This document shows, piece after piece, positions 4,814-56,970 of a stretch of 64,000 nucleotides of DNA (positions are counted from its first letter, which is position 1; the number at the start of each line of letters is the position of its first letter). Both the position numbers and the translations under genes were made by a program. The DNA comes from a candidate division WS6 bacterium OLB20 (GTDB lineage: Bacteria; Patescibacteriota; Dojkabacteria; B142; OLB20): the NCBI GenBank assembly GCA_001567355.1, contig JYNZ01000005.1:67981-131980 (forward strand), given 5' to 3'. Under the pieces are notes generated by a model that was not told the DNA's origin, did not search any database, and was given only the letters and a program-made list of their open reading frames with translations.

Positions 4814-5023
4814 TGAATGTTCTCAAAAAAATAAATCCCGATTTCTTTCGGACGTACAAATTAGAAACCTGGGATTCATTTCGTGCGGGAATGCAGAAGT
4901 GCTCTCGAATCTAGTTTGGACGTAGTAGTGTATAGTAATTATAGCATTTGTCAGACAATTACCCTAGACTCTTTGCTCTTTTTTCTCTGTTGTAGCCTTT
5001 GAGTCCGAGTTATATACTCAGCT

Positions 5024-5518
5024 ATGGAACACACCGAAATCTCAAAGCAGGATGCACTTGCATTCCTGCAAAGCCAGTTCATCATGAATATCGCCTGTGT
5101 CTATAACGGCTTACCCGTCTCGTCGGTGCTGCTTTTTCATATCGACGACGAATGTAATTTCTACTTTGCCACACACCGTGACTCAATCAAGTCCAGAGCA
5201 CTTCTGAGCAACAGCAACGTTAGCCTCTCTGTCTGGGAGCATAATAAAATGCTGATCCAGGCTGATGGAGTGGCTGCAGAAATCACTGATACAAACAAGG
5301 CGATAGAGATAATTGACCGGCTTGCGGAATCGACCGCAAAGGGGGCTTCGTTCTGGCCACCCCTGTTCCGGATCAAAGGCGATTCTTATATTGTGTTTGC
5401 GATCAAACCGACCTGGATGCGTGCGCTCGACCTGACCCGGGACACAATGACACAGGAGGACTCTCCCTTTTCAACCATTATCAGTTCCGACAATGAAACA
5501 GGTAATAGTTCTGTTTAA
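5024..5518 (+). CDS. Pyridoxamine 5'-phosphate oxidase-like FMN-binding split-barrel protein (general stress protein 26-like)
   Basis: Size and sequence pattern (…FIMNIACVYNGLPVSSVLLFHIDDECNFYFATHRDSIKSRAL…SLSVWE…) fit the PNPOx-like family. Confidence 0.55.
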   Translation: MEHTEISKQDALAFLQSQFIMNIACVYNGLPVSSVLLFHIDDECNFYFATHRDSIKSRALLSNSNVSLSVWEHNKMLIQADGVAAEITDTNKAIEIIDRLAESTAKGASFWPPLFRIKGDSYIVFAIKPTWMRALDLTRDTMTQEDSPFSTIISSDNETGNSSV

Positions 5519-5882
5519 CGACTCTGATCCGGTTCTCGCCCGTGTCGCACGGGTTAAGTTAAAGACAGAAGCCGGATGGGATGTAAAGATCACTGCTAAT
5601 TACGATGAGGCTCTGCAGGCCGTTACTGCCACAGGTGCAAGTATTCTCGTGACAGAGCTTATCCTTGCTGATAATCAGGGAAGAACGGGATTTGATCTGA
5701 TAGAAGCAATCCGCAAAGACAAGTCACCAGAAGAGCTGCCGATAGTTGTTCTGTCAGAACTGAGGCAGGAAGAAGACAAAGCAGAAGCACTTGCAAAAGG
5801 CGCTGACTACTATTATGCAAAGTCAGAGATAGGTATCAAAGACCTGATAGAAAGGGTCCAGGAGATTATCGGGCAGGAATAA
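5493..5882 (+). CDS. Single-domain response-regulator receiver (CheY-like), with Glu at the phospho-acceptor position
   Basis: Receiver fold: acidic pocket NDSD, a Ser at the Thr87-equivalent position (VLSE) and a conserved Lys (YAKSE). The usual 'LD' phospho-Asp site reads TELILAD with Glu in place of Asp. The start overlaps the end of the previous ORF. Confidence 0.55.
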   Translation: MKQVIVLFNDSDPVLARVARVKLKTEAGWDVKITANYDEALQAVTATGASILVTELILADNQGRTGFDLIEAIRKDKSPEELPIVVLSELRQEEDKAEALAKGADYYYAKSEIGIKDLIERVQEIIGQE

Positions 5883-5895
5883 AATTACAAGTCGC

Positions 5896-7770
5896 TCAGG
5901 AGAGCCCAAGCTGCTGCTTAGCCATGTCTGTCAGGTTTTTTCGCTGCGACCAGTCACGTTCGTGCTTTTTAAGATAGCGCTTTCGCAGACGCAGACTCTT
6001 TGGTGTAACCTCCAGCAGCTCATCTTTTCCGAGGAAAACAAGTGCAAACTCAAAGGTCAGCTCTTTAACGCCCTTCAGCTGGACCTGTGTGATTTCAGCC
6101 TGATTGCGTCGCACTCCGCTCTTCTGACGCTCTTTTGTCGGATTGACCTCAAGGTCCTGTTCATATTTATTAATACCGATAATCATTCCCTCGTAAACAT
6201 CAGTAGCCGGAAAGATAAACAGCTCACCACGCTCCTGGATAGTATTAAGCGCATAGGCACTTGCCGGCCCTGTGTCAGAACTGATTAACGCACCTCTGCG
6301 GAAGAAGTCCTCATGCTTCTCCTGAGGAACATACTCAAGCAGATAATTGTTCATCACAAGATTGCCCTTTGTATCGGTCAAAAGTTTATGCCTGAGTCCC
6401 AGCAGACGGGACGTCAGGATAGTAAACTCCATTTTGGCCTGTCCGTTTTCTGTATCCATATTCTGCAGCTGTCCCTTGCGAACACTCACCTCGTTAAGGA
6501 CCGCTCCTGAATACTCCTCGGGGACTTCAACGTATAGCTCTTCAAGCGGCTCGTGTTTGACACCGTCAATAGTTTTAAGAATGACCTCCGGTCTGCGTAC
6601 CTGAAACTCAAACCCTTCACGCCTCAGCTCCTCAAGCAGAATAGCCAGCTGAAGATCGCCACGGCCGGCAACGTAAAATGACCCGTCATCATTCTTTTCG
6701 ATCTGCAGAGAAATATTAGTGTCTGCTTCGCGCTCGAGGCGCGCCTGCAATTGCTTGACTGTGACAAACTCACCTTCTCTTCCAAGAAACGGTGAAGTAT
6801 TCGCTTCAATCTTAATACGTACAGACGGGTCAGAGATTTTTATAACGGGTAGCGGTTCTATGTTGTCACGAGCGCAGACGGTGGCACCGATCGCTTTGGA
6901 ATCCACTCCCACAAGCGCAACTATTTCTCCAACAGATGCCGAGTCAGAGGGTACGAACTGAAGCCCTTGCTTTACAAGCACCTGCTTGACGGTTCCCTTT
7001 GCGTCAATGTCATGTCCGTTCTCTGCAGGCAGTGCGACGACTATATCGTCACCCGCCTTAACGGTACCACGTCTGATTTTTCCGACTAATGCGCGTCCGG
7101 TATGAGCATCAAATTCAAGTGTTGTCACCTGCATCTGCAACGGTCCGTTTTCGTCACCCTCAGGGCCCGGCACGTAAGACAGGATCTTATCAAGAAGCGG
7201 TCTGATATCTGCTTCCGCAGAGATATCAGCAGGCATCTCCTGCCATACCTTTCCATCGCGTCCAATCGCATAGAACACCGGAAACTCAAGCTGGTCTTCT
7301 GTCGTAGCCAGATTCAGAAACAGATCCTGCAGCTTATCGAGTGTTCTGGCGATGTCTGTAGCTGGTTTATCAATCTTGTTGATGACAACAATCGGCTTCA
7401 GGTTTAGCTCCAATGCCTTTTTAAGAACAAACCTGGTCTGCGGCATTGGCCCCTCAGCACCGTCAACGATCAGCAGACACCCTTCCGCCATATTCAAAGT
7501 CCGTTCAACTTCACCTCCAAAATCCGCATGACCTGGTGTATCAATAACATTAATACGATGGCCGTTGTATTCAATCGAAATATTTTTTGCCTTGATGGTA
7601 ATCCCCTTCTCACGTTCAAGCTCACCGGTATCAAGTATCATTTCCATATTCATCTCCTCCTGGTTGTCGCGGAAGATATTTGACTGCTTCAGAAATGCGT
7701 CTACGAGGGTCGTCTTCCCGTGGTCGACATGGGCGATGATGGCAATGTTGCGAATGTTCTCTTTATTCAA
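5896..7770 (-). CDS. typA: Translational GTPase TypA/BipA
   Basis: G-domain motifs (AHVDHGKTTL, DTPGHADF, NKID) at the N-terminus and an EF-G-like domain organisation. Length is 624 aa. Confidence 0.92.
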   Translation of the reverse strand: MNKENIRNIAIIAHVDHGKTTLVDAFLKQSNIFRDNQEEMNMEMILDTGELEREKGITIKAKNISIEYNGHRINVIDTPGHADFGGEVERTLNMAEGCLLIVDGAEGPMPQTRFVLKKALELNLKPIVVINKIDKPATDIARTLDKLQDLFLNLATTEDQLEFPVFYAIGRDGKVWQEMPADISAEADIRPLLDKILSYVPGPEGDENGPLQMQVTTLEFDAHTGRALVGKIRRGTVKAGDDIVVALPAENGHDIDAKGTVKQVLVKQGLQFVPSDSASVGEIVALVGVDSKAIGATVCARDNIEPLPVIKISDPSVRIKIEANTSPFLGREGEFVTVKQLQARLEREADTNISLQIEKNDDGSFYVAGRGDLQLAILLEELRREGFEFQVRRPEVILKTIDGVKHEPLEELYVEVPEEYSGAVLNEVSVRKGQLQNMDTENGQAKMEFTILTSRLLGLRHKLLTDTKGNLVMNNYLLEYVPQEKHEDFFRRGALISSDTGPASAYALNTIQERGELFIFPATDVYEGMIIGINKYEQDLEVNPTKERQKSGVRRNQAEITQVQLKGVKELTFEFALVFLGKDELLEVTPKSLRLRKRYLKKHERDWSQRKNLTDMAKQQLGLS

Positions 7771-12388: not shown

Positions 12389-13021
12389 TTACTCGATCCG
12401 GAATATTCCCTCCATCCCCTGAGCACGATGGGTTCCGACTGAGCAGTAAAAAGAGTAATCACCAGATGCCAGCGCTGGAACGGTAAATGTCACCGTCCGC
12501 TGCTGACCGCCGGGAATCAGTGGTGTACGTGAGCCAGGGATCTCATCCACACCCCAGTCATGCATGCCTCCGGTACTGCTTACCGTCACCCTGATCACCT
12601 CACCCGGCGATGCTGTTATCACCGGTACGGAGTATCCGTAATGAAACGCGGTTATGCTGATACTCTGATCGATTCCCTGTGTCGGACTCGGTGTTGGCGT
12701 TGCAGTATTCGTAGGAGTTGCGGGGGCGGTTGCAGCAGGCTCCTGTGTCACAGGTGCAGCAGTTGAGGGTGTAGCTGTGGGTGCCGGTGTCTGGCTGACA
12801 TCCGGAGACACTTCTGGACTGCCCGAAGGAGTTACTGTAACAGAAGGTATCACAGAGGTACCAGGATCTTCTGATCCGGTTTCAGGAAAGGATGTAACCG
12901 GGAATGAGTCCGGAGCTTCACCCGTTGTATTCTGACGGGAAGTTCTGAGGAGAGTGCCCGTTACGATACCGGCAAGGAAAGCGCTGAGAAGAAAAATAAC
13001 GGCAAAGGTCTTCATAAACAA
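12389..13021 (-). CDS. Blue-copper (cupredoxin / plastocyanin-like) protein with signal peptide and a long Ser/Thr/Pro-rich linker
   Basis: Type-1 Cu ligands are spaced as in plastocyanin and azurin: H in GGMHDWG, then C…H…M in YCSVGTHRAQGM. The linker of about 80 aa is low-complexity TPSPT. Confidence 0.7.
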   Translation of the reverse strand: MFMKTFAVIFLLSAFLAGIVTGTLLRTSRQNTTGEAPDSFPVTSFPETGSEDPGTSVIPSVTVTPSGSPEVSPDVSQTPAPTATPSTAAPVTQEPAATAPATPTNTATPTPSPTQGIDQSISITAFHYGYSVPVITASPGEVIRVTVSSTGGMHDWGVDEIPGSRTPLIPGGQQRTVTFTVPALASGDYSFYCSVGTHRAQGMEGIFRIE

Positions 13022-34894: not shown

Positions 34895-35624
34895 TTAATT
34901 CTGTTCATCATCCGACAGCAGCCGAAGTTCAAGATTGGTCGGGTTGAGCCCCTGCTCGAGCAGCCATGTTTCTATTCTCTTATCTGCACCCGTCAGGATA
35001 AGCAACCCGACAACAATAAGTATCACACCCAGCACTTTTTTTGAATGTGCCATCAGGGTTGGCAAGCCAGCGCAGACGCTTAACCGCATCCTGCCCCAGC
35101 CATGCAATCGCCAGCAAGGTTACAGCCATTCCCAACGTGTAAACAAGCAGATTGATCAGACCGACTGCAAAGCTTTGCGGAAGTATGGTCGCCAGAATCA
35201 CTGTGTACGTCGGACTGCAGCTTGAAAATACCGGTCCAAGTGACATGCCGATCAGCACAGAGCCGATAACTCCATCACGTGTACCTGCCTTATGCAGAAG
35301 ATTGTCAGATCGTGAGCTTAATCCCAGCTTTACGTTAATCCAGTCCCACAGACGCGGGAACAGCGTGACAATTCCAAACCCCAGGATCAGAAATCCGGCA
35401 ATCGCCGTCCATACCTGTGGAGGTACCATGATCAGTAACGTTGACGCTTTGAGAAGCAGTGTAAACAGTATGATTGAGACCGACAGCGATGCAATGATGA
35501 TCAAGGCCCGCCTTCTGCTGCCGCTGGTCAGTGAGCTGCCCAGGATAACCGGCAGTACCACGATGACACAGGGTGAAAGTATGGTCAGAAACCCAGCCAG
35601 AAGGGAGATGAAGAGATATTCCAT
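34895..35624 (-). CDS. ccdA: CcdA/DsbD-family membrane thiol-disulfide electron transporter, with a 1-nt frameshift in a T7/A7 homopolymer at 35036..35042
   Basis: N-terminal SPCV Cys motif. The annotated frame ends in a Cys/Trp-rich junk tail. Removing one A joins it to the 34895..35107 ORF, giving …FKKVLGVILIVVGLLILTG…, the canonical CcdA C-terminal helix. Confidence 0.7.
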
Positions 35625-35639: not shown

Positions 35640-36203
35640 TTAAGTAAGTTGCGCGACAATGTCATCAAGTGAAAATCCGCCTGACCATTTTTTAATCAGG
35701 TTTCCCTGGGCATCGACCTGGACAAGAGTGTGCTGGTAGGTAACGCCGTATTTCTGTTTCAGCTGGGTGTAGGTATCGTAATCGGTTTTAAGGATAGTAA
35801 GATCTGAGGGAATTTCGTCGAGGGAACCGTTAATACTGTCATTGAGTATTTTGCAGGTCGGGCACCAGCTGGCAAGGAAGAAGAGAACAACATCACCATT
35901 GCTGGCGTTTGCAAGCAGACGTTCATCGTAGTCCACGTACGAGCCTGACTGAGCGCTATCATCCTTCATCTTGTCATCACCATCCATCTTGTCATCGCCT
36001 TCCATCCTGTCGTCATTCTTCTCCATCGATTCACCATCCATCATCTTATCGGCTGTACCGTTTGAACCCTGGTCCGGGTTTGTGCTGTTGTTACCGGCAT
36101 TTACCAGCAGTATTCCTCCGATTGAGAGAATGATAAGAACTACAACGGCAAGCACGATGTACATCACTGTGTTTGACGATTGTTGCTGCGCCTGGTGATC
36201 CAT
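35640..36203 (-). CDS. Membrane-anchored TlpA/ResA-like thioredoxin (WCPTC)
   Basis: N-terminal TM, an acidic repeat region (DDRMEGDDKMDGDDKMKDD), and a Trx fold with WCPTC. Confidence 0.7.
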   Translation of the reverse strand: MDHQAQQQSSNTVMYIVLAVVVLIILSIGGILLVNAGNNSTNPDQGSNGTADKMMDGESMEKNDDRMEGDDKMDGDDKMKDDSAQSGSYVDYDERLLANASNGDVVLFFLASWCPTCKILNDSINGSLDEIPSDLTILKTDYDTYTQLKQKYGVTYQHTLVQVDAQGNLIKKWSGGFSLDDIVAQLT

Positions 36204-42724: not shown

Positions 42725-43279
42725 CTAATTGCTGCAACGGGCATCAACCTGATACTCGGATCTGATTGCTTTAATGTCGTACTCATCTTCACAGTATTCA
42801 CACAGATTGCCTTCAACAATGCCCTGCTCATTACAAACATCGCAGCCCTCACTTCCTGAGGCAAGAATACATGTCTCATACACTGTAGTTGCCAGCGAAC
42901 CTCCCGCGATGGCAACAATAACCACCATACCGATGATGCTGACAAAAAACGCTGCTACACCCATCCAGATTGCTTTTACAGCCTTCTGTGCTTCTTCGAT
43001 CTTACCGGCATCACCCTGTGACGTTACGTACTTGAACGCAGCTATACCAGCATAAATGACAGACGCAAGCACCAGTGCAATCCACATAACTGTTATCAGC
43101 AGTCGGATATTGTCGGTAACAAAATCAACAAGCCCTGCTCCTCCAGGGAACCGTTCAATTATCCGGGCGAGCTCATCAGGAAGAACGCTTTCCTGTGCTG
43201 CCACCGGAAAAACTCCGGCATGCAAGAGGGCAAATACAGCAAGCAGAGTAAATACACCCTTGACTGCAATTTTTCTCAT
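42725..43279 (-). CDS. Secreted/membrane protein with two TM helices and a C-terminal CxxC-x10-CxxC zinc-ribbon-like tail
   Basis: Signal peptide (start moved to MRKIAVKG…), two hydrophobic helices (a VirB2/TrbC-like topology), and a CDVC…CEYC tail. Confidence 0.45.
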   Translation of the reverse strand: MRKIAVKGVFTLLAVFALLHAGVFPVAAQESVLPDELARIIERFPGGAGLVDFVTDNIRLLITVMWIALVLASVIYAGIAAFKYVTSQGDAGKIEEAQKAVKAIWMGVAAFFVSIIGMVVIVAIAGGSLATTVYETCILASGSEGCDVCNEQGIVEGNLCEYCEDEYDIKAIRSEYQVDARCSN

Positions 43280-43407
43280 GATCAAAGACTGACAAGTATA
43301 TGATGCAGTGTAGGAAATCCTGCAGACGAACACAAGGCAGGAGGAATGAGAGATTGTAACCTTGATCGTCTAACAGGTATTATTTAATCAGTTTAATTCT
43401 GTCCATC

Positions 43408-44097
43408 ATGTTTATGAAAAAACAGTTACTGAGTCTGGTCATGCTTGCCGGAATGGTTCTGGCACCGCTGACTTTTGCTGCGGCACCTGTACATGCCTGC
43501 AGCTGTCTGCCGTTTGAGTCATTTACCCAGGCAGCAGAGATGTCAGATGTAATTATTTACGGCAACGTAGTCAGCACAAAGGGTACCGTAGATGGTGCGC
43601 CCGGTTCTGACGAGGTGTCGTATGAGGTTGAGGCATACGAGTTCTGGGGAGAGCTGGCAGAAGGTGTCAATACGATCACGACATCCGGCAGCAGTGCTGC
43701 ATGCGGTATCAACCTGACCCAGGGAGCCGAGTACATTATCATTGCCAGCAGGGACGAAAGCGGAATGCTGTCAACCGGACTGTGCAGCGGTACACAGGAT
43801 GCTACTGAAGCAAACCTCGAAACACTTCGAGCAGAGATGGGTCCGGGTATGGCGTTTTTCTACACGCAGGGACAGGAACCGGGCGCTCCGGACAGACCGG
43901 CTGTCGATGAACCAGGGGTAGACCCGACTCTCTACGACAATGAGGAAGTGATGCCGATCAGTGCACCGGCATATGATACGAGCGCTGCGGCTATAAGCAC
44001 AATCTGGGCAGCAGTTGCCTGCGTCGGACTGATGAGTACGGTTGCGCTTCTTTTCAGTTCACTCAACCTTGTGCTCTTCTTAAAAGGGAAAAAGTAA
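43408..44097 (+). CDS. TIMP-like / NTR-domain protein (putative metalloproteinase inhibitor), secreted with a C-terminal TM anchor
   Basis: The signal peptide is cleaved after VHA, leaving a mature N-terminus [28 protein letters not shown]. This aligns with TIMP-2 [46 protein letters not shown] and GLCSG align with the TIMP Cys70 and Cys99 regions. Confidence 0.6.
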   Translation: [229 protein letters not shown]

Positions 44098-44119: not shown

Positions 44120-44147
44120 AAAGCCCTCCACCTGGAGGGCTTTTTTA
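44120..44147 (+). terminator. Rho-independent terminator (aagccctcc acct ggagggctt + T6)
   Basis: Perfect 9-bp stem with a T-tract after the stop. Confidence 0.75.
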
Positions 44148-47881: not shown

Positions 47882-50800
47882 ATGGTACGAGTTGCCTATT
47901 CAGGTAAGGATATTCCTCATATGCGGAATAGATTTGCCCGGTTGCCACACAAGGCACGAGCTGTATTCAGACGTCCTGCCTTCCGGGCAGTTTCGGTTTT
48001 CAGTCTCATACTTTTTCTGCTTGCACCTGTATTTCTCCCTCTTTTAGTCAGTGCTGCGCCGGTTCCATCACTTGTTGTATCACTGCCTGCAGAGACACTT
48101 ATCGGGGAGGATGTATCATTCAGTATCTCGTTTCAGAATACCGGGACAAATGAAGGTTACGGACCATTTATTGACCTGATTTTTCCCTTCACCGGTGCGG
48201 ACGGTATCTACCCGTTCAGCCCAGGTCTGGAGGAAGACGGCCTTGATTTTGTATCAGCTTCATTTTTAAGTACGCCGCTGACGACCTCAGTGTTTCAGTT
48301 TACCGACACCGAGCCCTGCGTAGACCATCCCTATGCAGTAGACACAAGCGGTCAGCCCATCTCCATCTGCGGCACACCTGGTGACAAACTGGTTGTGCTT
48401 CAGCTTCCGTTCGGCTCATTTGTGCCGGGACAGCCTGATGTCGATGTCAGCGTTAATGCCACCCTTCACAACTGGGCAGATGCCGGAACTGATCTGACAG
48501 TGCAGGCGCGTGGCGGTTTTCAATTTGGTGCAACACCGGCAAATGACTTTACTACCGATCCCTCAGTACTAAACACATTTTCAGATTACGACACGACACC
48601 GACCGTATTCAGCATTCGCAAAAATTATGTCGGGCCTGAGGATGAGACAGCTTCGGGACAGAACTTCCCGCGCGAGTTCAACCTCTTTGTTGACATTGCT
48701 GACAGCCTCACACTGACTGATTTTGTGATGAACGATAATCTTGATAACCGGGTTGTCTACGATGGATTCGGCAGCAGCAGTCCCTCCGCCACAATAACTG
48801 ACACTCCTGGTACGCCCGGTGCCCAGAACCCGCCAGCTAACAATCTCACACTTGAATGGGCGTCACTTACCGGTACTACGTCGGGCACAGATGCAAGTGC
48901 CTCATTTGACTTTTATGTTGACCGGCTGGATGCTAATGCCGCCAGCGTAATCAATCCAACTGCGGGCGGTTGTGTAAACATTCCAAACGATATTTCCGCC
49001 ACAGCGGACTGGGATCCTGATGATCCGAGAGACAGCATCACACCCGTCAGCTCTGATGTGACACCTACAGATGAAACGTTTGAAGCATGCAGCATGGTAA
49101 TTCAGAAGTCAGTAGCCATGGCAAGCGATACCGGACCTGCCGGTTACACGCCGGGCGACATCGTGCAGTACACACTTAATTTCCAGGTCTCTGACTACTT
49201 TGCGCTGAGTGATGTCATCATCAACGATCTCATGTCAGACGGTCAGCGGTTTGATACAGGCTTCACTCCGACACTCAGCTTTACCTCACATGGTGTCAGC
49301 ACTTCAGGAGCGATGGATCCGTCAAGCTTCACTGTAACCGATCACTTTACTGGTGGAGCGCCTGCTGTCCCGCCGATTGAAGGTACACAGGAGGTAAGTT
49401 TTGACATCTCGGGAGAACTGTCGACACGCAGCTATATTTCGGGCAGTGACCTGATAGGAGGATGCGTTCCGTTTGGCGGAGGTGCAATCGACTGCACAGG
49501 GTCAAGTGCAACGACAGGAACGCTTGTCTTCAGGGCAGAGATCCAGGAACTCTTTACAGACGAATATGCACCGCAGAACGATAATGTTGATCAGGGAGAC
49601 ATTCTTACCAACTCAGTCGAGATAAGCGGTCAGATTCTTGTTAATTCGACCCTTGCAGGTACGGGCAATTACGTGAGCGAAGGCAGCGGAGCAACATTCA
49701 GCATCCTCAATGGCGCGCTTGCAGTCAAAGACATCTATGCGATCAATGGAATCACAGGATCCTACTCCACACCGGCAATTGGTCCGGGTGATACAGTCAC
49801 ATATCGTATCCGTTTTGAGATGCCTACATCCGATGTCGAGGATCTTGTGATTACCGACTATCTGCCACTTCCGGTTTTTGAGGCGACAGAAATCACAACC
49901 TTTGATCCGACGGTTAATGCAACCGTGCCACCCGCAGGTACCGTTAAATTCGGAGCTAATGACACATTCTTTGCCCTGACAGGAATCACCCCGATACTGA
50001 CAAATGACGGCACCTCAAATACATTCACACTGGATTACGGCAGCAATCAGGAGGTGACAGAGGTAAGCTCGGTTATCGAACTCTACGTAACCGTCACGGC
50101 CTCAGATGAACCGTTTGCAGATGGCCTGTTTCTGACCAACCAGGCTCAGTCAACGCAGGGAACAACCAACAGTACAACCGAGACTGCCACGCAGATTGTC
50201 CAGGTGGAGCTGACACTGCCGAATCTGCAAATCACAAAGGGAATTATCGCCACGGACGGTCCGGCAGGAGTATTTGACCCTGCCCCCCCTGCTCCGGAAT
50301 CGGTCACAGCACCTGATACTGCGGGATTCCGGTTCGGAGGGACGGTAAGCTCATCAGATCTTGATGCAAATCCTATGGACAGTAATCTGAGTGATGTTGA
50401 CTCGGATGATCTGGTCAGTTTTGTTATCGTTGTTGAAAACACCGGTCAGGGTGTCAACGGCGCATTTGACGTCGGCATCTCAGACACACTGCCGGCTGAT
50501 TTTGTCATCCCTGTAGCCGGTAACGGTCTGAATCTGAGAGTAACCGATGGTGCCGGCAATCCCCTCTCATGGACTGCCGCTGATGGTACTGATACTGTCC
50601 CGCTGTTTGAAGACGGGATTATTCTTGATGACGGTGTGACTGGCGCGCTTGATGCATATGACACCTCATCCGGCGGCAATATAGCGCTTATCACCTACGA
50701 TCTGCAGATTGTTAATGATGTTGAACCGGAAAGCCTGATCGAAAACACTGCCACTCTGTTTCAGTATGCAAGTACCGAAGGCGGCCCCGACTTTGTCTCA

Positions 50801-53800
50801 ATCAACCAGACGGATGCTGCCGAAGTCAGTGGCACAAAAGCACCTGACATCTCAAAATCATATACCACCACAAACCATGCCGGCTCGACCGATCCGGATG
50901 TGGTCGTTGGCGAGCAGATCACCTATGAGGTCGTTCTCGATATCCCTGAGGGCGAAATGACTGGCACAGACCTTACCGATACACTCGACAGCGGTCTTGC
51001 CCTGCTCGGTATCGACTCAATTGTTGCATCCAGTGGCGACGTGACGACAAGCCATGCCGGCGGTTTTGCAGGTGTTGCTGCTGACATAGTTGTAACAAAC
51101 AGCGGCAGAACAATCGAGTTTCCGTTTGATACGATCACTAATGTAAATACCGATGACGGAGTGACCGAGACTATCACCGTGACCTATACAGTGGTTGTGC
51201 TCAACAACAACCAGATCTATCGTGATCGGGCACGCAATAACAGCGCAGTATTCACCTATCAGAACGGTACCGTTTCCGACAGCGCCAGCAATGTCAATGT
51301 TGCCGAGCCGACACTCCAGATTACCAAAACACCTTCTCCGACAAGTGCAGATGCAGGCGATACGGTCACGTTTACTCTGGTGATCAGCCATACCGGGGCC
51401 AGCGATGCCAATGCCTACGATGTTCAGCTGGAAGATATCATCCCGACGGGTATGACCTATGTTGCGGCAAGCGTCAGCCATGATGCAGGCCTTGCTCCTG
51501 ATAACGGTCCTTCCGAGTCAGGCGGTACAATCAGTGCAACCTGGAACACATTTCCGGATGACGGATCCACGAGCACGATCAGTTTTGATGTTACCATTGA
51601 CAGTACCGTGCCTCTGGGCGGAACAGTCACCAATACTGCAGGGATCGAGTGGACAAGTCTGCCAGGAGATATAACAGCCGATCAGTCTACCTATGCATCA
51701 CCCTCAACAGAGCGTACCGGCGATACGGGCAACCCCGGAGGCTCCGAAAATGACTACACCACCTCTGCAAACGGTCCGGTTTCCATTCTGTCCGTTAACC
51801 CGGTCAAGACCATAGCTGCAACGTCTGAGGCATCCACGACCGCCCTGAGCGGGATCGAACGCGTAACGGTCGGAGAGATTGTCCGTTACCGGATGGTCAT
51901 ACGAGTAGCAGAGTCAACTGCGACAAACCTGCAGTTACGTGACAACCTGTCCACAGGCATGCAGTTTATCGATGATGGTACAGCCATGGTGGCATTTGTC
52001 AGCAACGATGCCGGAATAACTTCATCAACACTGATACCCGGCAGCATCGGCTGCGACGGGGGCAGCAATCCCGATATAGCGTTCACTGGTAATCAGACAA
52101 CTGTATCGGGGATAACTCCGGAATGTCCGCTGCCTGACAGTGCAGTCAGTAACTCAGCCGGTTCCGATGTTGATACATACGCCTCCGGCACTGATATTTA
52201 CTTCAAGCTTGGCAATGTCGTCAATGATGACCGCGACGGCGATGACGAGCTGATCGTTGTCGAATTCAACGCACTCGTCAGAAACGAAGCGAGTAATGTC
52301 AGCGCGACAAACAGGGACAACACATTTAACGTATTTGAAAACGGCTCGAGTGTTGCAGTATCAACAACAGGCAACTCGAGCAGAGTACGGATTGCAGAAC
52401 CTGTTGTTTCTGTTGCCAAAGCGGTGACTGTTGCGCCAACGGATGCCGGTGACGCGCTTCAGTACACTATTACGGTCACCAATACGGATACCAGTGTCAA
52501 CGGCGCATCAGCCTTTGACTTCACTGTAACCGACACAGTCCCTGCTGAGGCAGCTGTCCAATCGGTATCTGTCAGCACGCCAAACGGGTATACAGATAAT
52601 TCTTCAGGGCAGAACGTCAGTGTCGTGCTGGATACTCTCGGCAAGGGTCAGGCGGCAACCATCACAATTAATACATTTGTCTCATCCGTAGTTCAACCCG
52701 AAGAGATTATCAGTAATTCAGCGTCTGCAGTCTGGACCAGCCTGCCGGGAACAAACGGTACGACCGGCAACCCCACAGGGTCGGCAAACAGCGGTTCTGC
52801 AGGCACAGCGACTGGTGAACGCACAGGACAGGATGGTGTCGGCCTGCTTAATGACTACACTGCTTCGAGTACTGCAAACACATCAGTCGGCTCGGTAATA
52901 ATCGATAAACTGTCACCTTCTCCGACGAGCTATCCGATCGGTTCATCAGTTGACTACGATATCCGGGTGACCCTGCCCGAAGGAACTGTCAGCAATGTCG
53001 TTGTAACCGATTTTGTCCCTGCCGGAATGGATTACACCGGGTACCAGGTCATCACTACCTCGGGTACAAATCTGCCCCAGACATTTGCAGGCAGTGTTCC
53101 TGCACCGTCAGTATCCGGGGGTACGGGAAGCGGCTCGGATGTATCATTTACATTCTCAAGTATCTCAACAACGGCCGATAATGATACCGGCAACAACAGT
53201 TTTCTGGTGCGGGTCACACTTGTCATACTTAACGAACTGACAACACAGCGAGGCGATACACTTGGTAATACCGCGGGACTTGTATTTGATAATCCGAACG
53301 GCCCTGGCACATTGGCCGAAAACGATCTTGTCCCGGAAAATATCACCGTACTTGAGCCGATTCTGCAGCTGACAAAGACTGCTTCTTCAGTCCCGGCTGA
53401 GGTGGAGGCAGGAACAACGGTCGAGTATGAGATCGAGGTGCAGCATCACGCAAACAGCAACAGTACAGCACATGATGTAGTCATCAATGACCCTGCACAA
53501 AGCAATCTGACGATCACAGGTGTATCGGTCAATGTAACCGGGTCAATCAGTACACCAAGTTCCACCTTTACCGGCAATACGGTTCGTGTTCCGGCAAGCG
53601 GAAGCTTTGACCTGCCAGATGATGGAACAATCGTAACGGTAACAGTGACAGCGACCGTCAGTGCAGGAGCAAGCGAGACGATTACAAACATTGCCGATAC
53701 GACATGGGCTTCAACAGATCTACCAAACACCAATGCGCGCACTGACGGCAGTGGTGAGTATGACCTTGCCGAGTCAGGCGCGACAGGACTTAACGACTAC

Positions 53801-56272
53801 GAGACAAGTGACGACGACATGCTGGTCACGACATCTGACCCTACGGCAGTCAAATCTATAGCTCAGACCAGCCTGGCAACAACCTCGGATGCGTCCGATC
53901 CGGTTGAGCTTACGCCGGGAGAAGAGGTTACGTTTTTCATTCTGATCGGAATCGGTGAAGGTACGACCACATCACTGCAGGTGCTTGACGATCTGGCCCC
54001 GAATATTGAGTATGTCTCACACGCTGTAGTGACAAATGCTGCGGCAAGCTATGGCAATATGGCCCAGAATTTCAGCGGTACAATCCCCGCTCCATCCTGC
54101 ACCGGCTGTACCCCCGGATCTGACGGAGCTGACCTGACATTTGACTTCAGCAATATCGTAAATACGGTTGACGGCAACGGACTTAATGATTTCTTCGGTC
54201 TGCAGATCGTTGCCAGACTTACAGACAACCCGATCAACGACGGTCTTCCGTCGGGTACGACTGATTTCAGCAACAGCGCAACGGTGCAGGCAAATGTGCC
54301 GACCGGACCCGTGATCGATGCAGGCACAGTCGACATGACCGTTGTGGAGCCGGATGTAACTATCACTAAGGAGTTTGACACAGGGACTGATCCAGATCAG
54401 GCATCACCATACGATATTGCCACGGTTACTATAGTAATCGGCAATGACGGCAGTACCGATGCCTACGATATTACGTGGGAGGACGATCTGGAGAGCATAC
54501 AGGCAGGAGTGTTTAACTATCAGAACGATCTCGGAGTGGTCTGTACTGGCGGCGTACCTGTTACTATGACTGTCGATGATACAGCCGATCCTCTCCTGAC
54601 CGGTCAGCTTGGCAGGCTGCCCGCAGGCGAGTCATGCACGGTAACCTTCAGTGTTGAGCTGGACGGTACTATTGACCAGGGCACCTATCCGACAGTCACT
54701 AACGAGACTGCTGTAACGTCATTTGATAACCATCCTTCGTCTCCGGCAGAGCAACGAAGCCAGGGTCCTGTAACAGCATCTGACACTATTACGGTTGCCG
54801 TTGTGGATCTCGAGATTGTAAAAGATGACAGCGATACTGAGGTTGATCCGGGTGATACAGCAATCTATACCCTGTCTGTCACCAACAACGGTCTTGCTGA
54901 TGCGACAGGTATCACTGTAACCGAAACCGTGCCGGCTAACACACAGTTTGACGCTTCTAACAGCACTGTGGGCTGGACCTGTACCCCGGACAGTGCACCG
55001 GGTGCTGCATGTACGTTTGACCTGAGCACCCATCTTGGATCAGCACTGGCTGGTAACGGCGGCACAACCGACATCTATTTTGCCCTCACGGTTGATAACC
55101 CCGTCGCACCGGGCACAGTCAGCATCGCAAATACGGCATCTGTTGAGGATGATGGCGCAAGCGGCGTAGATCCGACACCCGGTGATAATACAGATACAGA
55201 TACAAATGCTATGGGGAACGTGGTTGACCTGATTATTGTCAAGACAGCAGCAGACACTGAGACAACATTCAATACCGACCTGGTCTTCACTCTGGAATAT
55301 GAAAACGTGGGAACTGTTGACGCGGAGAATGTGGAAATCACAGAAACAGTGCCGACTGACAGCGAATTCAATCCGACCCTCAGCGCTCCCGGCTGGTCAT
55401 GCACGCCAGATAACCTGGCAGGCAGCACCTGTACACTGGCGCTCGGGACAGTCGCCGAGAATACCTCAGGCAGTGTTGAGTTTGCGGTCACAACCGGAGA
55501 CTATGCACTTGGAGTTTACAGCGAGATAGAAAACACCGCGTCTATTGCTGACGACGGCACGTACGGGCCGGACAGCAATCCATCTGATAATACAAGTACT
55601 GCGACAGTTCCTGTCTTGTACACCAATGTGTTTGACCCGCCGTCCGCGCAGAAGACATTCAATGACGACGAGCTGCCGGAGATGGAATGGGTCATGGTCT
55701 GGATCAATGACGGCAACACGGTTGCTCTAAACGTCAGGATTGTGGATCCGGTGCCGGCCGGAACAACATACATTCCAGGAAGCTTTGTCTGCGAGCCGCG
55801 GGGTGTATCTGCCACAACACTATGCGAATATGATTCCCTTAACAATCAGGTCGTCTGGGAGGGTTCAATCGGTCCGGACACGGGAGGCACAACAGAAGAC
55901 GACAGCGACAATGAGGTGGTGCTGACCTTTAAGACAAGTGTACCCGCCGAGATCGAGATGCTTGAAAACCAGGCAATGGTTTACTGGGATGACAATATGG
56001 ATGGAAACGTAGATGATGATATTCTCGCAGGGCAGACCGCAGGTATGTCAAATGACCCCGATACGACAGAAGCCGGTGACCCGACCATCTGGGAGCGTCC
56101 GGAGCTGGCTGCAACAGGCGCCGTCCTGACAGTACCGGCGTTACTTGCAACATTGATTATAGCTGCAGTTATTGCAGTCAATATTCAGCAGCAGAGGGGT
56201 ATAACCCTGCATGGATTTATACACCTCAGAAAACACTCAGGGGTAGCTGATCGGATACGATTCAGGCGCTGA
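47882..56272 (+). CDS. Giant (2796 aa) surface protein made of DUF11 'conserved repeat domain' modules, with a signal peptide and a C-terminal LAATG sorting signal plus TM and basic tail
   Basis: Many TIGR01451-like repeats (…DTAIYTLSVTNNGLADATGITVTETVP…, …DTVTFTLVISHTGASDANAYDVQLEDIIP…). The C-terminus is …PELAATGAVLTVPALLATLIIAAVIAVNIQQQRG. Confidence 0.8.
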   Translation: MVRVAYSGKDIPHMRNRFARLPHKARAVFRRPAFRAVSVFSLILFLLAPVFLPLLVSAAPVPSLVVSLPAETLIGEDVSFSISFQNTGTNEGYGPFIDLIFPFTGADGIYPFSPGLEEDGLDFVSASFLSTPLTTSVFQFTDTEPCVDHPYAVDTSGQPISICGTPGDKLVVLQLPFGSFVPGQPDVDVSVNATLHNWADAGTDLTVQARGGFQFGATPANDFTTDPSVLNTFSDYDTTPTVFSIRKNYVGPEDETASGQNFPREFNLFVDIADSLTLTDFVMNDNLDNRVVYDGFGSSSPSATITDTPGTPGAQNPPANNLTLEWASLTGTTSGTDASASFDFYVDRLDANAASVINPTAGGCVNIPNDISATADWDPDDPRDSITPVSSDVTPTDETFEACSMVIQKSVAMASDTGPAGYTPGDIVQYTLNFQVSDYFALSDVIINDLMSDGQRFDTGFTPTLSFTSHGVSTSGAMDPSSFTVTDHFTGGAPAVPPIEGTQEVSFDISGELSTRSYISGSDLIGGCVPFGGGAIDCTGSSATTGTLVFRAEIQELFTDEYAPQNDNVDQGDILTNSVEISGQILVNSTLAGTGNYVSEGSGATFSILNGALAVKDIYAINGITGSYSTPAIGPGDTVTYRIRFEMPTSDVEDLVITDYLPLPVFEATEITTFDPTVNATVPPAGTVKFGANDTFFALTGITPILTNDGTSNTFTLDYGSNQEVTEVSSVIELYVTVTASDEPFADGLFLTNQAQSTQGTTNSTTETATQIVQVELTLPNLQITKGIIATDGPAGVFDPAPPAPESVTAPDTAGFRFGGTVSSSDLDANPMDSNLSDVDSDDLVSFVIVVENTGQGVNGAFDVGISDTLPADFVIPVAGNGLNLRVTDGAGNPLSWTAADGTDTVPLFEDGIILDDGVTGALDAYDTSSGGNIALITYDLQIVNDVEPESLIENTATLFQYASTEGGPDFVSINQTDAAEVSGTKAPDISKSYTTTNHAGSTDPDVVVGEQITYEVVLDIPEGEMTGTDLTDTLDSGLALLGIDSIVASSGDVTTSHAGGFAGVAADIVVTNSGRTIEFPFDTITNVNTDDGVTETITVTYTVVVLNNNQIYRDRARNNSAVFTYQNGTVSDSASNVNVAEPTLQITKTPSPTSADAGDTVTFTLVISHTGASDANAYDVQLEDIIPTGMTYVAASVSHDAGLAPDNGPSESGGTISATWNTFPDDGSTSTISFDVTIDSTVPLGGTVTNTAGIEWTSLPGDITADQSTYASPSTERTGDTGNPGGSENDYTTSANGPVSILSVNPVKTIAATSEASTTALSGIERVTVGEIVRYRMVIRVAESTATNLQLRDNLSTGMQFIDDGTAMVAFVSNDAGITSSTLIPGSIGCDGGSNPDIAFTGNQTTVSGITPECPLPDSAVSNSAGSDVDTYASGTDIYFKLGNVVNDDRDGDDELIVVEFNALVRNEASNVSATNRDNTFNVFENGSSVAVSTTGNSSRVRIAEPVVSVAKAVTVAPTDAGDALQYTITVTNTDTSVNGASAFDFTVTDTVPAEAAVQSVSVSTPNGYTDNSSGQNVSVVLDTLGKGQAATITINTFVSSVVQPEEIISNSASAVWTSLPGTNGTTGNPTGSANSGSAGTATGERTGQDGVGLLNDYTASSTANTSVGSVIIDKLSPSPTSYPIGSSVDYDIRVTLPEGTVSNVVVTDFVPAGMDYTGYQVITTSGTNLPQTFAGSVPAPSVSGGTGSGSDVSFTFSSISTTADNDTGNNSFLVRVTLVILNELTTQRGDTLGNTAGLVFDNPNGPGTLAENDLVPENITVLEPILQLTKTASSVPAEVEAGTTVEYEIEVQHHANSNSTAHDVVINDPAQSNLTITGVSVNVTGSISTPSSTFTGNTVRVPASGSFDLPDDGTIVTVTVTATVSAGASETITNIADTTWASTDLPNTNARTDGSGEYDLAESGATGLNDYETSDDDMLVTTSDPTAVKSIAQTSLATTSDASDPVELTPGEEVTFFILIGIGEGTTTSLQVLDDLAPNIEYVSHAVVTNAAASYGNMAQNFSGTIPAPSCTGCTPGSDGADLTFDFSNIVNTVDGNGLNDFFGLQIVARLTDNPINDGLPSGTTDFSNSATVQANVPTGPVIDAGTVDMTVVEPDVTITKEFDTGTDPDQASPYDIATVTIVIGNDGSTDAYDITWEDDLESIQAGVFNYQNDLGVVCTGGVPVTMTVDDTADPLLTGQLGRLPAGESCTVTFSVELDGTIDQGTYPTVTNETAVTSFDNHPSSPAEQRSQGPVTASDTITVAVVDLEIVKDDSDTEVDPGDTAIYTLSVTNNGLADATGITVTETVPANTQFDASNSTVGWTCTPDSAPGAACTFDLSTHLGSALAGNGGTTDIYFALTVDNPVAPGTVSIANTASVEDDGASGVDPTPGDNTDTDTNAMGNVVDLIIVKTAADTETTFNTDLVFTLEYENVGTVDAENVEITETVPTDSEFNPTLSAPGWSCTPDNLAGSTCTLALGTVAENTSGSVEFAVTTGDYALGVYSEIENTASIADDGTYGPDSNPSDNTSTATVPVLYTNVFDPPSAQKTFNDDELPEMEWVMVWINDGNTVALNVRIVDPVPAGTTYIPGSFVCEPRGVSATTLCEYDSLNNQVVWEGSIGPDTGGTTEDDSDNEVVLTFKTSVPAEIEMLENQAMVYWDDNMDGNVDDDILAGQTAGMSNDPDTTEAGDPTIWERPELAATGAVLTVPALLATLIIAAVIAVNIQQQRGITLHGFIHLRKHSGVADRIRFRR

Positions 56273-56364: not shown

Positions 56365-56970
56365 TCAGCCAGTCTGCAGCGGTCGCACGCTCACCGGCTC
56401 TGCCTTCACGACGAATCTCCGGTCTGATGTCCATAGCGGAACACAGGTATAAAGTGTAAGAATATTGCGCTCTGATGGCTCTTCAATGTACTTTGCATCG
56501 GCAGCCACCTCCTCGGTCACACTCACGCGGTACTCGTACTCTGTCTCGTTCCAGAGGACGAAAATCGTATCCCCCTCCTTCAGTCTGGGTAGATGATAGA
56601 ACGAACGCTGCTCCTGTCCATACAGGTAACGGTGGGCAACAAGCACTGTATTGCCTCCCGCTTCAGGGTCTGATGTACCAGGTCTGCGCCAGATGCCGTT
56701 GTCCAGCGTTGCAAATGCAGTGCCTTCCCAGATGCGTCCTGACACACCTATGCGCGGTATTATCAGTCGATTTCCCGTCTCCGGTTCGGAAGGAACCGGC
56801 ACAGCTAGTGCGCGTGCCTGATCAAGCAGCCCCTCCTGCAGTTCTGGTGCAAGTTCCCGGTATGTCAGCTCAGGGATGAGGGGCAGAATTATCACATACA
56901 GCGCGATCGACACTGTCATTACTGACAGGAGAAACTGTATCCGCTGCAAGAAAGTTCTGCTCATGGACAT
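56365..56970 (-). CDS. Sortase transpeptidase (class E-like), membrane-anchored
   Basis: N-terminal TM, catalytic His in NTVLVAHRY, TLxTC motif (LTLYTCVP) and a downstream Arg (RRFVVKA). It sits adjacent to the LAATG substrate. Confidence 0.8.
   Translation of the reverse strand: MSMSRTFLQRIQFLLSVMTVSIALYVIILPLIPELTYRELAPELQEGLLDQARALAVPVPSEPETGNRLIIPRIGVSGRIWEGTAFATLDNGIWRRPGTSDPEAGGNTVLVAHRYLYGQEQRSFYHLPRLKEGDTIFVLWNETEYEYRVSVTEEVAADAKYIEEPSERNILTLYTCVPLWTSDRRFVVKAEPVSVRPLQTG

Follow-up and report, generated by a model that had tools for sequence, protein, structure and literature searches.

Is the inhibitory domain of the metazoan tissue inhibitors of metalloproteinases (TIMPs) also displayed on the surface of bacteria? 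The question is raised by a gene in a stretch of 64,000 nucleotides from the candidate division WS6 bacterium OLB20 (contig JYNZ01000005.1, positions 67,981 to 131,980 of the forward strand), which is called the window below and in which coordinates are counted unless another locus is named. An earlier sequence-only reading of the window had noticed that the product of this gene would, after removal of its signal peptide, begin like a TIMP. In TIMPs, the protease-binding ridge is composed of residues 1–5 and of the loop preceding the disulfide partner of Cys1. The alpha-amino group at the N-terminus of TIMPs binds the catalytic zinc of the protease (PMC9890683). The WS6 protein is, with near certainty, a homologue of TIMPs that shares their fold, and it is somewhat probable that it is a surface-tethered metalloprotease inhibitor using the TIMP mechanism. 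The features of the gene and its product are:

43408..44097, + strand: intact coding sequence of the TIMP-like protein, 229 residues plus stop codon (list of open reading frames and sequence)
43408..43497, + strand: signal peptide, residues 1–30, with n-region MFMKK, hydrophobic core, and c-region AAAPVHA (from sequence)
43498..43842, + strand: mature TIMP-N-like (NTR/OB-fold) domain, residues 31–145, approximately 115 residues
43498..43512, + strand: Cys31-Ser-Cys-Leu-Pro35, matching TIMP residues 1–5 (aligned with CSCSP of TIMP-2)
43690..43707, + strand: Ser95-Ser-Ala-Ala-Cys99-Gly100, counterpart of SSAVCG of TIMP-2, the second half of the ridge (HMMER alignment)
43783..43785, + strand: Cys126, in GLCSG (residues 124–128), counterpart of Cys101 of TIMP-2, which pairs with Cys3 (aligned to ...ITLC)
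43843..43980, + strand: linker rich in Pro, Gly, Asp, and Glu, residues 146–191, modelled with low confidence (predicted local distance difference test score 47–59)
43981..44094, + strand: C-terminal transmembrane anchor, approximately residues 192–225, followed by the basic tail KGKK (helix 192–227 in the model)

Homology to TIMPs and fold of the protein

All elements described in the sequence-only reading, that is the signal peptide, the CSCLP segment, two later cysteines, the linker, and the transmembrane helix, are present in the open reading frame. Residues 30–127 match positions 2–108 of the Pfam TIMP profile PF00965 with a score of 29.2 bits, compared with a gathering cutoff of 23.1 (E = 9.6e-7), and this is the sole Pfam match of the protein at E ≤ 10. 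That reading had proposed a search with the TIMP and NTR profiles: the former is matched above its gathering score, whereas the generic NTR model PF01759 (netrin, sFRP, PCOLCE, C345C), which usually describes domains with six cysteines at internal or C-terminal positions, is unmatched even at E ≤ 10. A scan against NCBIfam gave no family match. Among the sequences in the PDB, phmmer found TIMP-2 and TIMP-3, with residues 31–127 placed on residues 1–102 of TIMP-2; the match with 2tmp_A (TIMP-2, E = 7e-4) starts with Cys31 on Cys1 and reaches the fourth cysteine, Cys126. The alignments with TIMP-2 that had been drawn by eye are thus reproduced by HMMER and phmmer, with Cys31 in the place of Cys1. 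A profile of 121 bacterial homologues compared with 177,635 PDB sequences gave 15 matches at E ≤ 1, all 15 of them TIMPs (TIMP-2, E = 3.3e-12; TIMP-3, 2.3e-5; TIMP-1, approximately 5e-5), and no NTR module of PCOLCE, netrin, agrin, or complement was matched at this threshold.

The domain has the five-stranded barrel of the NTR/OB fold, and the top matches of the structure model in a Foldseek search are TIMP-1, -2, and -3, in agreement with the fold proposed earlier. The N-terminal segment has the Cys-Ser/Thr-Cys-x-Pro form of TIMPs, with CSCLP aligned on CSCSP. Four cysteines, C31, C33, C99, and C126, align one-to-one with the disulfide cysteines of TIMPs, and the latter two are indeed in the TIMP-like contexts SSAACG (residues 95–100) and GLCSG, both aligned with TIMP-2. 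A fifth and last cysteine, Cys215, is within the transmembrane helix. Among metazoan TIMPs (PF00965, MEROPS I35), TIMP-2 is the closest by sequence and N-TIMP-3 by structure. The features shared with TIMPs are the NTR/OB fold, the Cys-Ser-Cys-x-Pro segment right after the signal peptide, and the SSA-x-CG loop; those shared with TIMP-2 are the cysteines of the Cys1–Cys72 and Cys3–Cys101 pairs and the long A–B hairpin.

Signal peptidase I is predicted to cut after VHA, where V-H-A↓C (the arrow marks the cut) satisfies the −3/−1 rule. Because proline in position +1 disfavours cleavage, the alternative site AAA↓P is unlikely. The signal peptide forms a helix at residues 3–23 in the structure model. 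The earlier claim of cleavage directly before the first cysteine is thus supported by the rule and by the near-invariance of the site in the bacterial family. Cys31 would be the free N-terminus, the CSCLP segment the putative counterpart of the first half of the TIMP ridge, and Cys99 the predicted disulfide partner of Cys31. Both the sequence and the model confirm that a linker and a transmembrane anchor replace the C-terminal TIMP domain. The linker, residues 146–191, is poorly conserved across the bacterial family. The predicted topology is of type I, with the domain outside.

Conservation of the predicted N-terminal cysteine in a bacterial family

An identical protein is already in the NCBI database under the automatic name 'Tissue inhibitor of metalloproteinase [candidate division WS6 bacterium OLB20]', evidently derived from the Pfam match. 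Its closest relatives are 31–39% identical (BLASTP), with up to 45% identity over the aligned mature domain. When 1.84 billion representatives of clusters at 50% identity were searched by HMMER with a profile of the domain only, 20,502 proteins were matched at E ≤ 1e-3; at E ≤ 1e-10 there were 8,621 matches, and at E ≤ 1e-30 there were 144. As the cluster library carries no names, eukaryotic TIMPs may be present in the weakest tier. Starting from one WS6 gene, a bacterial family comprising at least 8,621 such clusters is thus reached, which keeps the working features of TIMPs: four bracing cysteines, a Cys1 predicted to be free, the CSC-x-P strand, and the loop SSA-x-CG. A membrane-tethered TIMP-like protein in a bacterium had been called unusual, which in the sense of rare is incorrect, since thousands of bacterial relatives exist. 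Named members are from Acidobacteriota, Planctomycetia, Chloroflexi, Bacillus, Sutcliffiella, Paenibacillus, Paenactinomyces, Cyanobacteria (Mastigocoleus), Saccharibacteria, and Steroidobacteraceae, and include MYXO-CTERM-bearing proteins of the myxobacterial type. They are labelled 'hypothetical', carry the Pfam-derived name, or are named after a sorting signal (LPXTG, MYXO-CTERM). A genome scan with the narrow pattern AxACSCLPPG, taken from a four-sequence alignment, found only four loci.

The four cysteines are conserved in 100% of 214 single-domain members and are invariant in the 121-sequence alignment, as the sequence-only reading had anticipated for homologues. Conservation in the family is also high at S32 (96%), S96 (92%), A97 (96%), and G100 (100%). 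After the cysteines, the best conserved blocks of the single-domain members are C-S-C-x-P-P, S-S-A-x-C-G, and L-C-S-R-T. As judged by alignment, the first two are counterparts of the two segments of the TIMP ridge. The motifs PP-x-PP after CSC, WKG, LCSRT, and D-L-x-x-LG characterize the bacterial family and are lacking in TIMPs.

The four invariant cysteines cluster at the same pole of the barrel and could, with the amine of the N-terminus, also form the site of a metal-binding (Cu, Zn, or Fe) or redox protein of the cell surface in place of structural disulfides. This explanation is quite improbable: the cysteines align one-to-one with two structural disulfides of TIMP N-domains, the family is present in aerobes (for example Bacillus/Sutcliffiella, Paenibacillus, and cyanobacteria), and redox neighbours are not conserved between loci.

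A signal-peptidase-I site of the type [AV]-x-A↓C-S-C is located directly before the CxC motif in 152 of 153 relatives, with Ala in position −1 in 149 of the 152 and Ala or Val in position −3 in 133. Position −6 is Pro in 95 of 227 relatives. An extra cysteine is found at −4, in the c-region of the signal peptide, in 31 of the 227 (for example QPRCAWA↓CSC and QPDCAYA↓CSC); its carriers include P0002, P0017, P0027, P0028, and P0032.

A cysteine directly after a signal peptide would also be expected of a lipoprotein, and 36 of the 227 relatives fit the permissive PROSITE lipobox pattern. Cys31 would then be diacylglycerol-modified after a cut by signal peptidase II, and the N-terminus would be blocked or buried, making the TIMP mechanism impossible. 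However, the classical lipobox [LVI][ASTVI][GAS]C is matched by only 7 of the 227, position −2 is Tyr, Arg, Phe, His, or Trp in approximately 65% of all 227, and P-V-H-A↓C of the WS6 protein fails the lipobox at −4 and −2. A lipid anchor would, moreover, be duplicated by the C-terminal transmembrane, LPXTG, or MYXO-CTERM anchor. The lipoprotein explanation was rejected on the lipobox statistics and is extremely improbable.

In a crude motif screen, approximately 77% of the 214 single-domain members (165) scored for a C-terminal transmembrane helix, basic tail, or LPXTG signal (15 with LPXTG), and one member is named MYXO-CTERM in its source. The anchor of the family is always C-terminal, be it a transmembrane helix, LPXTG, or MYXO-CTERM, and the N-terminus therefore stays free. 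Relatives with two or three tandem domains keep CSC in the first domain only, after the signal peptide; the internal copies begin with CPRC, CPPC, or CPGC, or are without cysteines. Taken together, the near-invariant cleavage site, the C-terminal anchors, and the restriction of CSC to the first domain say that selection appears to maintain a mature protein starting with Cys1 and held by its opposite end. A free Cys1 with the tether at the opposite end is a requirement of the TIMP mechanism and is needed by no other NTR protein.

These patterns also bear on the possibility that the domain is a non-inhibitory NTR binding module, a surface unit for ligand binding or adhesion whose target would be a partner cell, a polysaccharide, or a component of the wall rather than a protease, comparable to agrin NtA (which binds laminin), netrin, or the NTR domain of PCOLCE. 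The lack of protease linkage at the loci speaks for such a function. However, the family matches TIMPs only by sequence and no other NTR modules, the cleavage site abutting Cys1 is near-invariant and is lost in internal tandem copies, and conservation is strongest at the residues corresponding to the reactive ridge of TIMPs. A free Cys1 is not known from non-inhibitory NTR modules, which occupy internal or C-terminal positions in their proteins, and this also counts against the explanation. We consider it unlikely.

Tandem relatives in which the internal CSC is replaced by CPxC include P0008, P0011, P0018, P0019, and P0037. P0093 has another hydrophobic stretch resembling a signal peptide, which is located before its second domain and ends in AWA↓CTC; this suggests a fused gene pair or internal processing. 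P0009, P0012, P0023, and P0045 (1,030–1,213 residues) begin with two or three TIMP-like domains, after which come approximately 700 repeat-rich residues, in which no Pfam match and no HExxH motif were found. The C-terminal tail of these four proteins, …(I/L)YLPW(L)…, is conserved and may be a sorting signal.

Proposed mode of inhibition

From the sequence, we infer the cleavage position, the disulfides, the topology, the inhibition of proteases, and a biological role, which would be connected as follows. The protein would be exported by the Sec pathway and cut by signal peptidase I after Val-His-Ala30, so that the mature chain would start with Cys31. Disulfides Cys31–Cys99 and Cys33–Cys126 (equivalent to Cys1–Cys72 and Cys3–Cys101 of TIMP-2) would tie the CSCLP strand to the SSAAC loop, forming a rigid wedge. 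The flexible linker of approximately 45 residues and the C-terminal transmembrane helix would display the wedge at the cell surface with its N-terminus outward. There, it could insert into the active-site cleft of zinc endopeptidases, with metzincins as the most likely targets. As in complexes of TIMPs with matrix metalloproteinases (MMPs), the catalytic zinc would be chelated by Cys31 through its alpha-amino nitrogen and its carbonyl oxygen, and Ser32 would be directed into the S1' pocket.

Several points weigh against this mode of action. For any bacterial member of the family, inhibitory activity is something that we infer from sequence. The NTR fold is common to non-inhibitory proteins as well, such as PCOLCE, agrin NtA, complement C345C, and meteorin. 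Unlike TIMPs, the WS6 protein is without the C-terminal domain and the third N-domain disulfide (Cys13–Cys126 in TIMP-2) and has no cysteines at the equivalent positions; it therefore corresponds to N-TIMP only, on a membrane stalk. The WS6 lineage is generally regarded as anaerobic, which makes extracellular disulfide formation less certain. As stated in the sequence-only reading, no protease gene is adjacent: no open reading frame with an HExxH motif is present in the 64-kb window, and a Pfam scan of neighbours revealed no peptidase. Neither a conserved neighbour nor an adjacent metalloprotease was found in eleven other loci (L001, L003, L005, L006, L008, and L010–L015; together with the WS6 locus, twelve loci in approximately ten independent contexts).

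The sequence of the WS6 copy itself adds to these points. It is the most divergent member of the family and deviates from the consensus at positions conserved in at least 90% of members (F36, F39, V48, I50, L103, I112, G128, and N136). Among the 214 single-domain members, it alone has Ile50 and Ile112, where Phe and Tyr, respectively, are found in 211 members each, and it alone has Phe39, where Pro is found in 195. Gly128 and Asn136 also occur in the WS6 copy only, in place of an Arg/Asp pair present in 204 of the 214, and the joint loss of the pair suggests a lost salt bridge. The WS6 copy may thus have drifted in function. Fast divergence is common in genomes of the Candidate Phyla Radiation (CPR). 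The copy has an insertion of five to six residues at the tip of the A–B hairpin, a region that HMMER aligns with the long AB loop of TIMP-2. It retains all four cysteines, Ser32, Pro35, and SSAACG. We regard the WS6 protein as functional, possibly with altered specificity, because its open reading frame, signals, and key motifs are intact. None of the findings that the sequence-only reading had named as contrary to its proposal, namely a fold other than OB/NTR, a cleavage site apart from the CSC motif, or a lack of four-cysteine conservation, was encountered.

Proteases and protease inhibitors near TIMP-like genes

Since no linked protease is present here or in the eleven other loci, a general shield is favoured over the control of one cognate enzyme. 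We think that the protein would protect surface proteins in general from secreted metalloproteases, whether these come from neighbours, from hosts, or from the same cell.

An M48 peptidase is encoded two to three genes away from the TIMP-like gene in two related, syntenic loci. In locus L011, a secreted mini-metzincin of 167 residues (1457–1960, − strand) with the zinc motif HELGHALGLNHH and a weak Peptidase_M10 match is encoded 5 kb from the TIMP-like gene P0026 and is a candidate target of its product. The PG_binding_1 neighbour of the closest relative was considered as a metalloprotease and ruled out, as it has no HExxH motif.

Inhibitors of other types also occur beside members of the family, which speaks for the proposed inhibition. 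In locus L015, a single open reading frame of 654 residues (5001–6965, P0085) encodes a TIMP-like domain, a transmembrane helix, a second signal of the lipoprotein type (…LLLVAC), and, with a score of 365 bits, a complete serpin domain, and thus joins two types of protease inhibitor in one gene. P0014, which of all relatives is closest to the WS6 protein, has a gene of the alpha2-macroglobulin type approximately 4 kb upstream, in locus L014 (1–3669, + strand). The product of that gene, of at least 1,849 residues, has alpha2-macroglobulin/bMG domains and also HINT (intein-type) matches.

Comparison with known inhibitors and significance

Serralysin inhibitors (Pseudomonas APRin, Erwinia/Serratia Inh; MEROPS I38) are bacterial beta-barrel proteins whose N-terminal residues enter the active site of a metzincin. 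APRin and TIMPs engage their metzincins in a similar fashion (PMC8235301). The I38 inhibitors differ from the WS6 protein in having an unrelated fold and sequence, with no match in PDB sequence or structure comparisons of the TIMP-like protein. They are periplasmic, soluble, and encoded in protease operons, and have neither Cys1 nor a disulfide-braced ridge.

PotA (Potempin A) of Tannerella forsythia is, like the WS6 protein, a bacterial surface-anchored single-domain OB-fold beta-barrel. It inhibits the MMP-type metzincin karilysin, and also MMP-12 (PMC9890683). Unlike the WS6 protein, PotA is an N-terminally lipidated outer-membrane lipoprotein without a free N-terminus; it uses a 'bilobal' mechanism, not N-terminal zinc chelation, and its gene is immediately upstream of that of the target protease (PMC9890683). 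Secreted TIMPs differ from the WS6 protein in another way, as the latter is bacterial, tethered by a C-terminal transmembrane helix, and has no known MMP partner.

Tim of Listeria monocytogenes (LMRG_00714, of the Mtz-Tim pair) is likewise bacterial and membrane-associated, with a predicted TIMP-like fold and a metzincin-linked biology (PMC8235301). It is the only experimentally studied bacterial TIMP-like protein and is cleaved and released by its partner metzincin, with effects on the cell wall (PMC8235301). By analogy, the WS6 protein could be a protease-released effector or decoy, in which cleavage of the linker, which is long, disordered, and exposed, would free a soluble TIMP-like fragment acting on the cell wall or on other cells. 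However, the resemblance of Tim to TIMPs is confined to the predicted structure and does not extend to the sequence; Tim is a lipoprotein, lipidated at its N-terminus, with the lipobox LTAC, is always encoded beside the metzincin, which removes approximately 50 of its N-terminal residues, and behaves as a substrate or released factor, inhibition not being shown there (PMC8235301). In the bacterial family of the WS6 protein, in contrast, the N-terminus is predicted to be free, the anchor is C-terminal, and a paired protease is lacking, and a released effector is very improbable. Unlike the genes of I38 inhibitors, potempins, and Listeria Tim, the WS6 gene is neither adjacent to nor co-transcribed with that of a protease and has its own terminator.

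Literature searches on MEROPS I35 in prokaryotes, PF00965, bacterial TIMPs, and OLB20 returned no characterisation of the bacterial family, in agreement with the earlier statement that bacterial TIMP-like proteins are essentially uncharacterised. A paper from 2021 states that no bacterial TIMP-like protein is on record (PMC8235301). In the literature on TIMP evolution, the origin is placed in eumetazoans, and bacteria are unmentioned or, in two papers, appear only inside a cited reference. The database label is not new, but the family-level picture appears to be unreported.

As a tentative proposal, which we hold to be possible and not probable, the TIMP inhibitory domain could be an ancient and very widespread bacterial surface defence module, from which the eumetazoan N-domain descends or with which it shares an ancestor, perhaps by horizontal transfer. 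The module would be a wedge with a free Cys1, tethered at its C-terminus, and would block zinc proteases secreted by competitors, predators, or hosts. Bacterial and metazoan sequences can be aligned over approximately 100 residues at approximately 25% identity. WS6 and other ultra-small CPR bacteria are thought to have a lifestyle of attachment to other cells, and the module could shield their exposed surface machinery from the proteases of the partner. If the family does inhibit metalloproteases, it would represent a major class of protease inhibitors in bacteria that has gone unrecognised, the question of the origin of TIMPs would be reopened, and small, single-domain, naturally diverse TIMP scaffolds would become available for engineering.

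Transcription signals and origin of the gene

The coding sequence has a second in-frame ATG at 43414, which gives an identical signal peptide. The gene is separated by 74 bp from its divergent neighbour (42725–43333, − strand), and the gap contains a candidate promoter. The signals flanking the gene are:

43354..43383, + strand: candidate sigma-70-like promoter TTGTAA-18-TATTAT (consensus scan, 9 of 12 matches)
44120..44147, + strand: intrinsic terminator, a 10-bp GC-rich hairpin (AAAGCCCUCC/GGAGGGCUUU) running into a U-tract (RNA folding)

The promoter candidate is weak, as three sites were found in the scanned region compared with 1.1 expected. The terminator hairpin, 23 nt past the stop codon, has a folding energy of −19.2 kcal/mol (z = −2.9), and none of 200 shuffled sequences was as stable; it was recovered by RNA folding and is not listed by a simple terminator scan. 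Because of its own terminator and the divergent upstream gap, the TIMP-like gene looks monocistronic.

The guanine-cytosine content of the gene (0.53) and that of its third codon positions (0.54) are the same as those of neighbouring genes. Recent horizontal import and contamination were ruled out on these grounds, and the gene is therefore native to the contig. A viral origin was rejected, as no relative was found in IMG/VR by a pattern search combined with tblastn and no structural match in BFVD at E ≤ 1e-3.

Neighbouring genes in the window

The neighbours in the window include LeuRS, a MerR/TipAS regulator, a Cys-rich membrane protein, a PQQ sugar dehydrogenase, and a GH31 enzyme. The divergent neighbour encodes 202 residues with a signal-like N-terminus, two more hydrophobic segments, and an acidic C-terminal tail in which approximately 50 residues (…CILASGSEGCDVCNEQGIVEGNLCEYCEDEY…ARCSN) contain seven cysteines; at E ≤ 1e-3, Pfam gave no match for this protein.

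A surface protein of 2,796 residues (47882–56272, + strand) has five DUF11 repeats, a DUF7619 match, and a weak Gram-positive pilin (Cna-B-like) domain, and is followed on the opposite strand by a sortase gene (56365–56970, − strand). The DUF11/pilin-like protein and the sortase suggest surface display in the Gram-positive style in the WS6 bacterium.

Approximately 8 kb upstream of the TIMP-like gene, a CcdA/DsbD_2-like membrane protein and a thioredoxin-domain protein are encoded side by side (34980–35624 and 35640–36203, both − strand). The score of the CcdA/DsbD_2-like protein, 23.6 bits, is just below the Pfam cutoff of 24.9. The thioredoxin-domain protein, of 187 residues, has an N-terminal transmembrane helix, an acidic Asp/Met-rich spacer, and the active site WCPTC. 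The pair suggests extracytoplasmic thiol-disulfide chemistry in the organism, which counts in favour of the proposed mode of inhibition. An open reading frame of 210 residues (12389–13021, − strand) ends in a copper-binding domain of the plastocyanin/azurin type (25.7 bits, cutoff 21.2), which is unexpected in a CPR genome of reduced metabolism.

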